Assembly: GCA_964016885.1 (NCBI GenBank)
Contig: OZ024740.1
Location: 389,050,001 to 389,114,000, forward strand
DNA from: Eledone cirrhosa
Lineage: Eukaryota
Reading direction: 5' to 3'
Length of the DNA stretch: 64,000 bases
Numbering within the stretch: position 1 is the stretch's first letter; the number at the start of each line of letters is the position of its first letter. The notes beneath the pieces are model-generated. The model had not been told where the DNA came from, searched no databases, and saw only the letters and a program-made list of their open reading frames with translations. This document shows positions 7,805-40,745 of the stretch, one piece after another. The position numbers and the translations under genes are program-made.

Positions 7805-8002
7805 AACGAAGGAAATGTGGTAAGGAACCAGGTGGACCATAACGCACCAAAGTACTCAATACTTTGGGTAGTAGAGTGGGTAATAGGAACAAGTAAGACC
7901 CCGACGGCTGAGCTCAAGCCGTTTCGACGGCTAATTCTGGACTCAGAATTAGCCGTCGAAACGGCTTGAGCTCAGCCGTCGGGGTCTTACTTGTTCCTAT
8001 TA
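7805..8002 (-). mobile_element. Fold-back mini-element, family X (PLE pLTR end with the 3' half of an HHR)
   Basis: Palindrome 7881-8002 centred near 7941 contains GAAACGGCttgagctcAGCCGTCgggg. There is a ~76 bp one-sided tail and (TA)n on both sides. Confidence 0.8.
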
Positions 8003-8453
8003 TAATATATATATATACACATATATAATATATATATATATATATATATACACATATATAATATATATATATATATACACATATATAATATATATATATA
8101 TATATATATATATATATAATATATATATATATTATATATATATATATATTATATATATATATAATATATATAATATATATATATATATAATATATATAAT
8201 ATATATATATATATAATATATATATATATATATATATATTATATATATATATAATATATATAATATATATATATATATAATATATATATATATATATATA
8301 TATATATATATATATATAATATATATATATATATATATAATATATATATATATATATATATATAATATATATATATATAATATATATATATATATAATAT
8401 ATATATATATATAATATATATATATATATATATAATAGTTTTAATATAGATGA

Positions 8454-8502
8454 GATTCTACAGGACTAGAACTGTTTCATTCATAAGAAATCATCAGGAA
8501 TC
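8454..8502 (-). ncRNA. Type I hammerhead ribozyme (intact core)
   Basis: Exact reverse complement of 8507-8555. Confidence 0.85.
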
Positions 8503-8506
8503 ATCA

Positions 8507-8555
8507 GATTCCTGATGATTTCTTATGAATGAAACAGTTCTAGTCCTGTAGAATC
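8507..8555 (+). ncRNA. Type I hammerhead ribozyme (intact core)
   Basis: GATTC-CTGATGA-tttc ttat gaat-GAAA CAG ttctagtc CTG TA-GAATC. Stems I and III pair and the cleavage triplet is GUA. Confidence 0.85.
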
Positions 8556-9084
8556 TCATCTATATTAAAACTGTTATACTCTGCTATGTATTGAGTACCT
8601 TACTTACTGTGGTTACCTCCGTTTCAACCCGGAATAACGTATATATATATAATATATATATATATATAATATATATATATATAATTCATATATATAATAT
8701 ATTTATATATATATAATATATATATATAATATATATATATATATATAATATATATATATATATATATATAGAATATATATATATAATATATATATATATA
8801 ATTCATATATATAATATATTTATATATATATAATATATATATATAATATATATATATAATATATATATATATATATATAATATATATATATATATATATA
8901 ATATATATATATATATAGAATATATATATATAGAATATATATATATATATATATATATATATATATATATAGAATATATATATATATATATATATATATA
9001 TATATATATATATATATATATATATAGAGAGAGAGAGAGAGAGAGAGAGAGAGAGAGAGAGAGAGAGAGAGAGAGAGAGAGATT

Positions 9085-9292
9085 GGCAGTCGAGCGACTT
9101 TCTTCAAATTGGACCGAGGAAACAATGTTTCCATCTGTCTTTCCAATTGCTAATACTATCTATCGGTCGCAACTACAGGTAGAAGGAACAACGTGAAATA
9201 AAGTGTCTTGCTCAAGGACATAACGCATCGCCCGGTCCAGGGATCGAGCTCACAACCTTACGATTGCCAATCCAATTCACTCGACCACGCGA
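9085..9292 (-). mobile_element. tRNA-derived SINE, family B
   Basis: Closely similar to 6545-6768 (gtgaaataaagtgtcttgctcaaggacataacgcatcgcc). Confidence 0.8.
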
Positions 9293-36446: not shown

Positions 36447-37156
36447 CAGGGTGACTAAAAAAAGTTGGCCCCATTTTTAATTTTGTCTACATTATTCATT
36501 TTTGACGAAAGCTGATGACATTACCAATACACTTAGTTCAAACCATTAACGATAACATATCAAACATTCACTGCCTGTTGATGTTTCTGACTAGAATTAC
36601 AGCACATGTTCCAAGTGATACCCATTTGAATCCATGCATTATTTTAGACGTATGGTGAAGTTTAGCATAACATCTTCACAAACAGAACTAGAGATGAATC
36701 TGATCTCCTCCCTAATGTTTTCCTTTAGTTCAGTGATGGTCCTGAGTTTGTTGATATATACCCTATCATTCAGATATCCGTAAGGAAAGAAATCTGGAGA
36801 GCTTAAATCGAGGCTGTGTGGAGCCCGCTTAATATCTTCAAATTTCGATTTCCGAAGTTATTTTTTAGTCATTCTCTCGATTTATTTAAGGTGTGGGGGC
36901 TTGCTCCGTCTTGCTGGAACTAGAACTATTTCATTAAAGATGGGTACTCTTCCAGGACCTCCACATAGTGTTCCTTTGTGACAACCCTCTCTGATAAATG
37001 GCAGCCCAGACGGTACATCTAGCTGAGTGGAGAGGTTTCACGGCCAGTTCAGTAGGCTTATTCTCCTTTAAGTGAAAATGGATTTCCTCAGAGTTCCACA
37101 CCAGATTCAGAACATTTGGGTTGTTTTCCCTCTTCTCCAGCATTTTCTCAACCATA
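36447..37156 (-). mobile_element. Near-identical inverted copy of the mariner fragment
   Basis: Reverse complement of 33748-34460. The ORF track shows the same 73 aa peptide with two residue differences. Confidence 0.88.
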
Positions 37157-38770
37157 TCCTTTCTCTTGGTCTTATCAGCTACAGTAAGCTTTTTACTCTA
37201 TTTTCTTTAAGGGTTGTTAAAGACATCAGTCTACGAAAGTTCAAAGTGAAAAATCTATTGCATCAATCCCACCCTTCTAAAAGAAGTGTTTTCAAATGTT
37301 ATGGCACTGTCATTCTCCCACCGACTATCAAAAACATAAATTGATTACTACTAATGCTTTACAAGATATATATTTTATTCATCTCGCATTGACCAATGTA
37401 AGAATAATTCAGGTCATATTAGAACTCAAAACGTAGAGGAATACATTCAGATGTGTGGCGTATGACTGATATATATGACATTTCATATCACTGTGAAAGT
37501 AAATCTCCAGACTTTTAGTATTAAACGTAGCATAAACTACTTGTAAATGCTTCTACAGGGATTTCAACAACCTAGGTTACTAGATTAAGGATCGAACCGA
37601 TAGGTTTCCACGGAGATATTAGCAGCTTGAAAGGAAGATCGAATCGACTAGCTGGGAGTTACTTTCACAATGACACTAAATATAACTATATTAAACATGA
37701 TACTGTATAAATATTTATCAAACAAATCATTTATCCGAGCACCAATAATTTCTGCCAAGGAAACACATGAATATGTATGCACATGTATTACTTATTTGTG
37801 TAAGAGATTAACTTATTGTACTAAGGACAGTCAATTGAATGTTTTGGTTTTCATTACTTATTACTAATTATTTTATCAATTCTGAAAAGTAGAAAAGCGA
37901 AATTGATTTGAAGGATAATAATCCAAAAGATTAAATGTCTTAATTGGATAGCTTAAGTTATTTATTCTGTTGACCTCAGGCTTCTCTCATAAAGGGATAT
38001 TCCTATTGATTTACATATTCATTCTTTGTGTATTATGACACGTTTTTCTTCGCTTCTTTTCCTTTCTAGTTGAGAGGAGTAGTTAGTAGCATTCATTTCA
38101 GCATATTAAGTACGCTTATTTTAAAGATACTGGGGATACGAATTTCAAGATAACTAAACAGTAAATTTAGCTGAATGTAAATATTATTTAATAAAGACGT
38201 CTTACACAGTGAGCAGGATCCCATATAAATATATATATATATATATATATATATATATATATATATATAATATATATATATATATATATATATATATATA
38301 TATATACAGAGAGAGAAGTGCGCTAGCAGCCGAAATATATGATAAAATTATATCGGTATAAATACAGATTGTGTAACCGAGACTGTACCAACGTGTATAA
38401 ATATATACACGTATCTATCATATAGGTATGTAAACATAACAGAAAATACGAATTCCCTGTAGATTGAGAAAATGATAAACGCCATTAATCGATTTTCGGA
38501 TATAAATGGATCTTCCTCAGAAGGCGTGTATATCATCACTCAACCATATATTTGATGGGTATATATACCCATTTGATCTTAGTATTATTCTGAAATAGAC
38601 ATACTGATTTACCTATAATTAGTGTTTGTGTTGGTAATTAATAAGATATGTATTGAGTAGTGCGTATATATAGGTATTGAGTAGTGCGTATATATACGTA
38701 TTAGCGGTTGGCGCTGCGAAACTCGAGCACTAGTCAATCAAGGTACATATGACATACATTATATGTGTGT

Positions 38771-38902
38771 AGGCGGCGAATTGGCAGAGTCGTTAGAACG
38801 TCGGCTCTCTCGGCTCTCTGAGTTCAAATCCCGCCGAGGTCAACTTTGCTTTTCCTTCATTCGAGGTCGACCAAAAAGTACCAGTCTAATACTGGGGTAG
38901 AT
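38771..38902 (+). mobile_element. SINE family A, diverged and internally deleted
   Basis: ggcggcgaattggcagagtcgttag..gagttcaaatcccgccgaggtcaac. Confidence 0.8.
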
Positions 38903-40375
38903 TCTTCCTCTATATCACTTTCTCACTGTTATTCTCTCACTCTTTGTTTCTCTGAAAGAAATCTGCTCTATTCAGACCTGAGGAAGAAATGGGCTCGGCC
39001 AGGATTAAAAAATGCCCTAGAAACGCCGTATGTCAATGCAGCGCCCCCACGACTCCCTCGTGGATTACGGGACCATGCGTGTGTTTGTGTATGAGAGAAA
39101 AAAAGATAGTGAGGGAGACTATGGGGGGGGGGCATATATATCCTTGTTAAATGGATATATGGTGTAGAGCCTGTCACTCCCTCCAATTTCATATAAAGAC
39201 AGTTTTCGATGAATTCACCAAAAATGGTGAATTCATAAAATATATTTAGCTTAGCTTACTCAACAATAGAATAATGGAACAAATCCAATATTCTGGTAAT
39301 GTTTCTATGATGGGATATAATAATAAAATTGTGACAACAATAAGAATCGAAGCCGAGCGACATTTCACCAGCTCACATGCTATTTACTGCAATTCAAAAT
39401 ATCCAGTAGTAAAAAAAACTGTACAATATACAGAAACAAAAAGAAAGACAGGAAAATAAAACAAAAGGTAAGAAAATAAAATGAAATTGGAGAAGTGATA
39501 GGCTCTACACCACAGTCTGAGCGGTGTTTCAGCTGCGGTCCACAGATAAAATGGCAAAGGCATTGCCACGGAGAATGGTCAGAGATACCCGATGCAACAG
39601 CCACTTCAACTGATGGAGCTCCCTTCTCAGGCTGGCTTACTGATCAAGTTTTTGGTTGAATATGGCGAGTGGAAAAATCAACTTTCATTAACCGAGATAC
39701 CTTCGCAACTTCAAGACCTAAATCCCCTTCAGATGTGTTCAGACGATAAAATGTAACCCAGGGAGATAACTACTATAACCTTAACAGATCCACGAGTTTT
39801 GGAACAATTTAAGACAATGCAGTAGGGTGACACTTGTTTATATGTTATCTTGGTGAAAACAACAAACATTTTCCGATCATCTTAGATCTCGTATATGACT
39901 TTAAGACTCCTGCCTGTCAGTAAAGTATATATGAATAAATAAACACACACACACACACACATATATATATATATATATATATATATATATATATATATAT
40001 ATATAAAAGTTTATATATATACATACACATACATATACGTGTTTTGCAACCGGTCACTTTGTGGCTCAATGAAAAATTAATAAATTAAACAATCAGAGCT
40101 ATATATCATAAAACATGTCTATAGAATCACAAGATAAAATATATACTATTTCCTCTCCCAATTAGCATAATTAACTATATAAAAAATCGAATAGACCAGG
40201 CTATAAGAATGAGGCTTCTATGAAGGAATCTCCGACAAATAACCAAAACTAGCACTTCGCGTCGGCCGTAGTGGAATATTTATCGAATATTTCGACAGCA
40301 TAATCACCTAGATACAGTCAACTAAGCAGAATGAGGTTTAAAATAAACTAAGAGAAAATAGAATACATTTAAATA

Positions 40376-40461
40376 CCTCTACCATGGTTTCGTCCGTGTT
40401 TTGAGTTTTCCAATAATTATGTAATAATTATATAAACTCGAGCGCCGGATTCTTCAGGAAG
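40376..40461 (-). ncRNA. Type I hammerhead ribozyme motif with extended stem II
   Basis: CTTC-CTGAAGA-atccg..gagttt ataattatt aca taattat aaactc..cggac-GAAAC CATG GT A-GAGG. The core is intact and stem III is palindromic. Confidence 0.75.
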
Positions 40462-40557
40462 CTCGCTCATATCTAGACATTAAATTTTCCAAAACGATCG
40501 CGCCAAGAATTCCTTTCAAAATGGCTAAAAATGTTATGATATATATATATATATATT

Positions 40558-40745
40558 ACGAAGGAGGTGTGGTAAGGAACCAGATGGACCATAACCCACC
40601 AGAATACTTGATACTAAGGGTAATAGAGTAGGTAATAGGAAAATAGTCAGGACCCCGACGGCAGAGCTCCGACCGTTTCGACAGTTCGGATCTAGCTGTC
40701 GAAACGGCCGAAGCTCAGCCGTCGGGATCCTGACTCTTTTCCTAT
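40558..40745 (-). mobile_element. Fold-back mini-element, family X
   Basis: Tail acgaaggaggtgtggtaaggaacc matches 7805 and 21412. Palindrome about 40634-40745, centred near 40690. Confidence 0.8.

Follow-up and report, generated by a model that had tools for sequence, protein, structure and literature searches.

Abundant hairpin mini-insertions in Eledone cirrhosa as probable aborted two-ended insertions of a Hydra-clade Penelope-like element

How does a short palindrome with a tail at only one end come to stand at thousands of sites in a genome, and why does it turn at nearly the same base each time? The question is raised by a 64,000-nucleotide stretch of the Eledone cirrhosa genome (contig OZ024740.1, positions 389,050,001 to 389,114,000 of the forward strand; hereafter, the window), which holds three such hairpins, referred to as minis A, B, and C. 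Their arms carry part of the hammerhead ribozyme of a Penelope-like element (PLE). We regard it as probable that the minis are aborted two-ended insertions of a Hydra-clade PLE, in which a pair of cDNAs runs off the 5' end of the RNA before end joining.

Positions in the element are counted from +1, which is the A of AGTCC in the hammerhead's loop II (L211:4049, in an intact element that also supplies the numbering of mini A). Two reverse transcriptase (RT) start sites, site 1 and site 2, delimit the arms, which are arranged as follows:

7803..7943, minus strand: long (tailed) arm of mini A, from element +1 (7943, the A of AGTCC) to about +141; it contains the 3' strand of stem II, GAAA, stem III, and site 1 (TTCCTAT).
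Mini A tail, minus strand: ends at site 2 (TTCGTTAT).
Between 7903 and 7902, minus strand: GUC cut site of mini A.
7944..8002, plus strand: short arm of mini A, from +5 to site 1, followed by (TA)n.
Mini A junction: blunt, head-to-head, TTCTG/AGTCC.
21221..21276, minus strand: short arm of mini B, from site 1 back to +5.
21276..21415, plus strand: long arm of mini B, from +2 through the tail to site 2.
40555..40684, minus strand: long arm of mini C, of the older family C, trimmed back to about +14.
40683..40745, plus strand: short arm of mini C, starting exactly at +1 (AGTTCGG) and stopping at site 1.

The initial annotation placed three hairpin-plus-tail copies at 7805-8002, 21221-21412, and 40558-40745, and their coordinates and build hold. 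The palindrome, estimated there at approx. 110-120 bp with a short arm ending at ttccta and a tailed long arm, measures 105-122 bp, and its short arm does end at TTCCTA; the tail does lie on the long arm, but it is 78-80 nt long rather than approx. 76 bp, with TTCGTTA as its terminus. Likewise, a turn near agtccaga was described for all three copies and is found in A and B, but mini C turns at agttcgga, the family-C equivalent. The arms share one G of microhomology in mini B and two nucleotides (AG) in mini C. The ends adjoin microsatellites, which are (TA)n throughout except for (TG)n at the short end of mini B. Mini A is 89.5% identical to mini B and approx. 79% identical to mini C. As had been noticed from the sequence, the RNA of an arm would hold only the GAAA-stem III-GUC half of the hammerhead.

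The PLE origin of the minis, suggested earlier, is supported by an intact parent. Locus L211 contains a 3,118-bp unit with an RT-endonuclease open reading frame (ORF) of 718 amino acids from Met, which includes a YRDD RT motif together with a GIY-YIG nuclease motif (VIYQC..AYIG) at its C terminus. Its translation shows RWR (a variant of RWK), SDKTG, CNCPDRSIC, and CNLCSEE...LNKK...CKH, and these correspond to the Hydra-clade motifs RWK, DKT for DKG, CxCX5C, CxxC, and CxH around E/N. The single ORF, with RT followed by C-terminal GIY-YIG, has the build of that clade, though the unit is slightly longer than the '<3 kb' given in PMC8557442; the insertion habit also agrees, with a (TA)n target, partial tandems, inverted copies, and a tail. 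In its motifs and (TA)n targeting, as set out in section 11 of PMC8557442, the parent fits the Hydra clade. Pfam assigned no family to the parent ORF, whose Atlas neighbors, at 0.96-0.99, carry GIY-YIG, RVT_1, and HTH_animal. Along the element, the ribozyme cut falls after +41, the short end at approx. +60, the tail end at approx. +140, and the ATG at +232; both RT start sites contain UAU, matching the (TA)n target, and lie in the 5' untranslated region (UTR). Family C has its own parent (176 matches), in which loop II is different. A pattern search of the genome recovered 3,395 + 3,446 = 6,841 hammerhead-complete ends, with 0 in the controls.

Within the window, the parent is represented by a long inverted insertion (51493-53488), whose parts are:

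51493..52265, minus strand: left inverted arm, with a second hammerhead (core CTGAGAA 51597-51591, +1 = 51552); it terminates at site 1 in (TA)n.
52350..53488, plus strand: right arm, 90-92% identical to long genomic copies; it holds the 3' end of the ORF (endonuclease region, stop at 52666), the 3' UTR/pseudo-long terminal repeat (pLTR), and a complete hammerhead, and ends at site 1.
53379..53474, plus strand: type I hammerhead of the right arm, with the UUGACAA core at 53384-53390 (U3-A8), GAAA, and the cut after C53469.

The initial annotation took 53380-53473 for the parent hammerhead. The locus is indeed a PLE hammerhead, but it is one arm of a 2-kb inverted, 5'-truncated insertion and its stem I is damaged (GGTG), the 3' strand of this stem being mutated in the window copy. 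Its layout stands, with a 33-nt loop II that holds an initiator-like TCAGT (+1 = 53429) and a palindromic stem III loop, whereas the core of the family proves to be UUGANAA, the U3-A8 form described as a PLE variant (PMC4209133). Among 68 parsed parent copies, the core is TTGA(C/G/T/A)AA in 60, CTGAGAA in 7, and TTGAAGA in 1, although its conservation is partly built in because the parse selected for core motifs; G8 occurs in none of 100 listed parent rows. In the parsed copies, stem I is paired in 61-68 of 68 at each position and stem III, with its palindromic loop, in 63-68. In stem II, families A/B differ from family C by compensatory changes (G-C to A-T in 5 copies, T-A to A-T in 4), and one stem II position is paired in only 39 of 68. 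The parent has the 3-8 pair (U3-A8 in 60 of 68), G10.1-C11.1, and NUH cut site (GUC) of a type I hammerhead, and three helices with covariation. A three-way junction is predicted for the L211 copy and not for the window copy, and an Rfam scan of the window did not report the parent hammerhead at E<=1, returning otherwise microsatellite-driven microRNA matches below gathering score.

Other hammerheads deserve separate mention. At 46997-47041 (minus strand), Rfam gives a weak Hammerhead_1 match (25 bits, below gathering score) with a canonical CTGATGA core; it adjoins a tail-like stretch and (TA)n and is probably the 3' end of another PLE. On contig C1, a parent subfamily (L184, L185, L201, and L202) has a C3-A8 core mismatch and has nonetheless been amplified, so that cleavage may be dispensable in it or supplied in trans. 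It has fewer cut-site minis (2 of 22), a confounded figure that is not used as evidence here.

The minis are very abundant. In the 3.0 Gb of genome surveyed, searches with minis A, B, and C gave 1,975, 4,900, and 7,444 candidates, and the 40 matches scored per query were nearly all end-to-end, with identities of 98-100% (A), 91-100% (B), and 85-100% (C). An exact head-to-head two-arm pattern occurs at no fewer than 20,119 loci, at least 17,442 of them with a spacer of 8-38 nt and at least 2,677 with one of 39-69 nt. Reversed-pattern controls gave 0, and head-to-head minis are therefore not due to chance. A random 200 kb sample contained one mini and two fragments, too few for statistics. Copies ranked by BLAST falsely suggested a fixed junction (29 of 30) because the ranking selects for it; positional samples were used instead, namely all of the first 50 loci by position among the matches with 8-38 nt spacers.

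The two arms of an insertion end in different ways. Pairing of a short with a long arm was found in 49 of the 50 positional loci, in all 23 fetched loci of a shorter class described below, and in 9 of 10 fetched long inverted loci. This pairing corresponds to the two RT start sites flanking the tail, each end using one site. A short arm that exceeds the tailed one cannot come from a tailed cDNA folding back, nor can a short cDNA account for the tail; two primed cDNAs are thus indicated. Of the 48 short+long copies of families A and B, 17 have a short arm that extends further 5' than its partner, 21 a tailed arm that does so, and 10 have arms of equal reach. In long inverted insertions, too, either arm can be the longer one.

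These observations bear on snap-back self-priming, a route by which a tail-primed cDNA runs off, folds back, and copies itself to site 1; self-priming has been proposed for PLE palindromes (PMC3846280) and, after a stall at stem II, for the minis in the initial annotation. Such a reaction explains why the arms and their 5' ends match within each locus, and the centers AAATTT (8 of 50 loci) and AnTn fit it. However, a short arm made in this way cannot exceed its template, and besides the 17 minis noted above it is the longer arm in the long insertions L211, L215, and L217. Moreover, single-arm insertions of either type exist (L330, L342, and L343, of which L330 and L343 end at +1 plus C), and short ends stand alone on 47 of 89 hammerhead-complete arms. 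Snap-back is therefore unlikely as the general route, although it could be the source of a minority of loci.

The junctions indicate that each hairpin is made anew. Forty-two distinct junctions were counted in the 48 copies (microhomology in 17, blunt joining in 14, and an insertion in 17), and as many as 12 types in 13 near-identical copies of the youngest subfamily; the longer spacers consist mostly of A-runs and locally copied inserts. Arms cluster by locus, with 2.0 mismatches per 36 nt inside a locus and 5.6 between loci (0 of 10,000 permutations), which was the outcome predicted for de novo formation. Arms of the youngest minis show no difference from parents with a hammerhead (distance 0 to L198 or L194), and a subfamily that had no parent among the first 30 arms was later matched to the ORF-bearing parents L336 and L337. 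Parents bearing an ORF or a hammerhead were found for families A, B, and C as well as for this seemingly mini-only subfamily. Judged by arms and junctions, a parent exists for every mini subfamily tested, and the palindrome arises anew at each locus.

The other route considered in the initial annotation was self-propagation as a non-autonomous element. The unit copied could be the whole hairpin, or a single-arm RNA from an internal promoter, with the hairpin rebuilt at each insertion. Their high copy number, the 98-99% identity of young copies, their excess over long insertions, and the re-creation of TCAGT at some junctions are in keeping with this idea. However, the whole-hairpin form is excluded by junctions that are not inherited, and with parents known for each subfamily tested the minis show neither an inherited junction nor a parentless clade. 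Furthermore, A+1 is lost in most minis, and by analogy with the anole protein discussed below, their RNA would lack the part downstream of site 2 that such a protein needs. Self-propagation in any form is accordingly very improbable.

The turn is confined to a narrow part of loop II. When arm extents were scored up to +1 (48 copies, 96 arms), 91 of 96 arms ended at +1 to +7, so that the fixed, non-uniform fold-back expected from the window copies is seen in this sample; both arms reach +1 in 2,325 loci. The arm ends fall at a conserved TTAGT/TCAGT, beyond which an untemplated C or a run of A often follows. In 66 of 68 parents T[TC]AGT keeps a constant spacing from GAAA, and those of family C are among them. 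The base after +1, read by eye in 100 listed arm ends, is A in 64, C in 21, G in 12, and T in 3. None of the listed parent rows templates a C at this position, and at six loci a C stands on both arms. The youngest subfamily, with a parent that has T at -1, shows C/C, single-C, and AAATTT junctions alike; AAAT followed by C also occurs, and several wider junctions have long A-runs after +1. An AAATTT center corresponds to two cDNAs that ended at A-4 and annealed via their terminal AT; with the AAAT-plus-C ends, it points to a possible second start at -4. In Drosophila the initiator is TCAGTT (PMC10290830), the promoter and start of Penelope lie in the pLTR (PMC2377424, PMC8557442), and RTs can copy a cap as C (PMC4038843). 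T[TC]AGT at +1 is likely to be a transcription start, and a capped start at +1 is the best reading of the arm ends.

A second class of minis has shorter palindromes, detected by pattern at 990 loci (control, 0). In the first 50 of these, examined by eye, both arms end at the ribozyme cut (GUC/GGGG) in 22 and one arm in 3, while 3 are ambiguous and 22 have collapsed through the inverted repeat of stem III; the 23 loci fetched for the pairing analysis comprise the 22 both-cut loci and an ambiguous one. Extrapolation from 22 of 50 gives approx. 435 both-cut loci genome-wide. Junctions in the group of 22 have from 0 to a few added bases, with a longer insert in one, and for 31 of its 44 ends +42 is the exact terminus; a further 6 are blunt and compatible with it, 5 have lost 1-2 bases, and the other 2 are ambiguous. 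The +42-ended class is likely a fossil of in vivo cleavage. The RNA may have been cut in cis, in a transcript started upstream, or in trans, either being possible; cleavage of substrate-half RNA by a CUGANGA-type partner, as imagined in the initial annotation, is structurally possible.

Insertions that combine the two kinds of ends are informative as to the number of templates. There are 259 insertions in which one arm extends to +7 or beyond and the other ends near the cut, and of 100 listed, 13 clear and 9 ambiguous cases end at +42/43. Looked at for a sign of trans-cleavage, these mixed insertions show no clear peak at the cut; many end at +39, and G-microhomology is a confounding factor. 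Two independent RNAs would predict mixed loci far in excess of both-cut loci, but the reverse is seen (approx. 356 both-cut loci extrapolated for matching subfamilies, against the 13-22 of 100 listed), and thus both cDNAs likely copy one RNA.

Could RNA structure set these ends instead? If RT stalled, stem II would fix the turn and stem III would produce the short class; the turn does adjoin stem II, and a distance of two bases separates the +42 ends from the foot of stem III. However, RT meets stem II at +17/+18, and the arms cross its whole 3' strand and at least 7 nt of unpaired loop to reach +1, and even -4. In addition, an RNA starting at +1 cannot form stem II in cis, and a stall at stem III should copy the unpaired C+41, whereas the 31 ends at +42 are followed by a non-G base. 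There is hence scant room for the stall at stem II that the initial annotation envisaged. RNA processing, whether through endonuclease cutting or through use of TTTTCATTTAG as a 3' splice site, would suit the splice-acceptor-like motif of families A and B and the 5' UTR intron of Penelope (PMC2377424), but it is hardly credible given that the arms include the AG itself, that no foreign exon or leader is attached, and that family C lacks a pyrimidine tract yet keeps TTAGT.

The two-ended reaction that we consider probable would proceed as follows. The PLE protein would cut (TA)n DNA, and one ribonucleoprotein would prime two cDNAs on one RNA, at +60 and +140, at both ends of the break. This RNA would start at the TTAGT/TCAGT initiator in loop II (A +1, with a likely second start at A-4), which would fix the turn; both cDNAs would run off its 5' end and, after untemplated addition and trimming, be end-joined head to head. 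On a template that the ribozyme had cut beforehand, both arms would stop at +42, and the shorter class would result. The same reaction would account for long inverted insertions and for partial tandems when RT gets past +1, through a circular or read-through template or through strand transfer. The cDNA of L211 went past +1 twice, giving a partial tandem, and a circle from ribozyme-cut RNA has been proposed earlier (PMC4209133). In vitro, the anole PLE protein cuts and extends both strands from two start sites that bound the tail, needs RNA downstream of these sites, and is predicted to be a dimer (PMC11167929); this is the chemistry that two cDNAs require. The parent, the hammerhead layout, the short+long pairing, the end positions, and the diversity of the junctions can be read directly from the DNA; from them we infer the cap, the single RNA, the end joining, and cleavage in vivo.

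Several observations weigh against this reading. The samples were drawn mostly from the start of contig C1. The remaining one of the 50 positional loci carries two tails (long+long), the long insertion of the window has short+short ends, and a few minis (L162, L038) combine arms of two subfamilies. Collapse through stem III in 22 of 50 short-class loci shows that trimming of junctions is common. The C signature has no clean control, since C also follows 5 of the 31 cut-site ends, and the A after +1 could be templated by an upstream UUU. Some arms extend into parent sequence to approx. -10 or -13, which implies heterogeneous starts or upstream templates. Frangieh et al. (PMC11167929) detected no RNA-seq reads with an end at the cut in their species. 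The start, the cap, and the in vivo cut are all deduced from genomic DNA.

If correct, the model implies that each insertion end uses a different RT start site while both cDNAs copy the same RNA 5' end, and that the germ line contains ribozyme-cut RNA, which undergoes reverse transcription. A genome suffices for the junction-histogram method, which should be transferable to other PLE families. As to annotation, such hairpins should be taken neither for miniature inverted-repeat transposable elements (MITEs) nor for microRNA precursors.

The window contains related features as well. It is rich in PLE remnants, with broken RT/GIY-YIG frames that have parent-like motifs at 695-2549, 3673-5140, 30863-31258, and 49006-50717. 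At 8437-8640, a hairpin-plus-tail of another family lies in (TA)n; arms of its 136-bp palindrome keep CTGATGA...GAAAC, the tail is approx. 67 nt long, and the turn lies just upstream of the core, not in loop II. Adjoining mini A, at 7412-7790, a 294-bp palindrome with a tail of approx. 85 nt lies between (TA)n runs and is likely a product of the same two-ended reaction in a third family. The motif GTAYTGAGTAC recurs in the tails of at least two families, with seven exact matches (7852, 8588, 21356, 27306, 27417, 27573, and 46851) and, with one mismatch allowed, 13 in the window versus 2.1 expected; in mini A it is part of a predicted hairpin that lies between site 1 and site 2, and it is a candidate protein-binding signal. 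Near-perfect inverted repeats at 56681-57716 (abutting 518-nt arms) and 33746-37157 (701-nt arms, 2 kb apart) are possibly young inverted insertions of other elements.

Among known systems, the minus-strand strong-stop DNA of LTR elements offers a parallel: there, tRNA-primed synthesis by RT begins close to the 5' end of the RNA and proceeds until it runs off the cap. The region from +1 to +41 would repeat at both ends of a transcript cut by its 3' hammerhead, like the R region, but the minis would be target-primed and derive from two simultaneous cDNAs that are integrated directly. We tentatively entertain the possibility, without favoring it, that a retrovirus-like strong-stop step is run twice at once and that only RNAs that are circularized or undergo strand transfer give full-length or tandem copies. 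The promoter would then lie inside the ribozyme, so that the mRNA 5' end would carry the substrate half only; the dimer would prime both broken DNA ends on one RNA; and either ribozyme cleavage and ligation would close the circle, the 3' pLTR supplying the missing UUGANAA half, or strand transfer would take place across the repeated +1 to +41. The 20,000 hairpins would be failed events, and would map the in vivo start site, the RT start sites, and the ribozyme cut at base resolution from DNA.

MITEs and foldback elements are short inverted-repeat elements in AT-rich DNA, and in L1 twin priming both target strands prime cDNA, a process that inverts without duplicating and has no fixed center. 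The minis differ from all of these in their asymmetric tail, variable end-joined center, and retroelement parent. In particular, an 80-nt tail at one end, the variable center, and an RT-encoding parent set them apart from MITEs, while a target-site duplication is unreadable in (TA)n. Eulor hairpin repeats were considered as a precedent and rejected, as no PLE link is given in the passages of PMC5753468 that were covered. Non-LTR retrozymes (bioRxiv 10.64898/2026.07.22.740005, PMC7229834) are likewise short, non-coding, pLTR-derived, and tied to PLE machinery; however, they form head-to-tail tandems with complete hammerheads, whereas the minis are head-to-head, are missing the core's 5' half, and give no indication of serving as templates.

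Inverted pLTRs, tails, palindromic junctions, and pLTR ribozymes are already known from PLEs (PMC8557442, PMC3846280). In the literature covered, which lies outside the repeat databases Repbase and Dfam, subscription papers, and supplements, no account was found of an abundant two-arm run-off class, of any rule that assigns one start site to each end, of transcription beginning within loop II, or of insertions whose arms stop at the ribozyme cut. Poseidon PAc of Anolis (Frangieh et al. 2024, PMC11167929) shares with the present family two internal RT starts bounding the tail, cutting and extension of both strands, an AT-rich target, a predicted dimer, and uncleaved RNA as the dominant template. 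In contrast, both start sites here contain UAU and lie in the 5' UTR (+60 and +140, with the ATG at +232), one site is strictly paired with each end, and some insertions read as copies of cleaved RNA. The closest resemblance in build is to the Hydra-clade PLEs (Craig et al. 2021, PMC8557442), which have in common with the parent a short single ORF, its motifs, (TA)n targeting, a pLTR hammerhead, partial tandems, an inverted 5'-truncated copy, and a tail at one end. The present family differs from them in its tail (approx. 80 nt versus 30-40), in its U3-A8 core, and in that its commonest product is a 190-bp, ORF-less, two-arm insertion with a fixed center.

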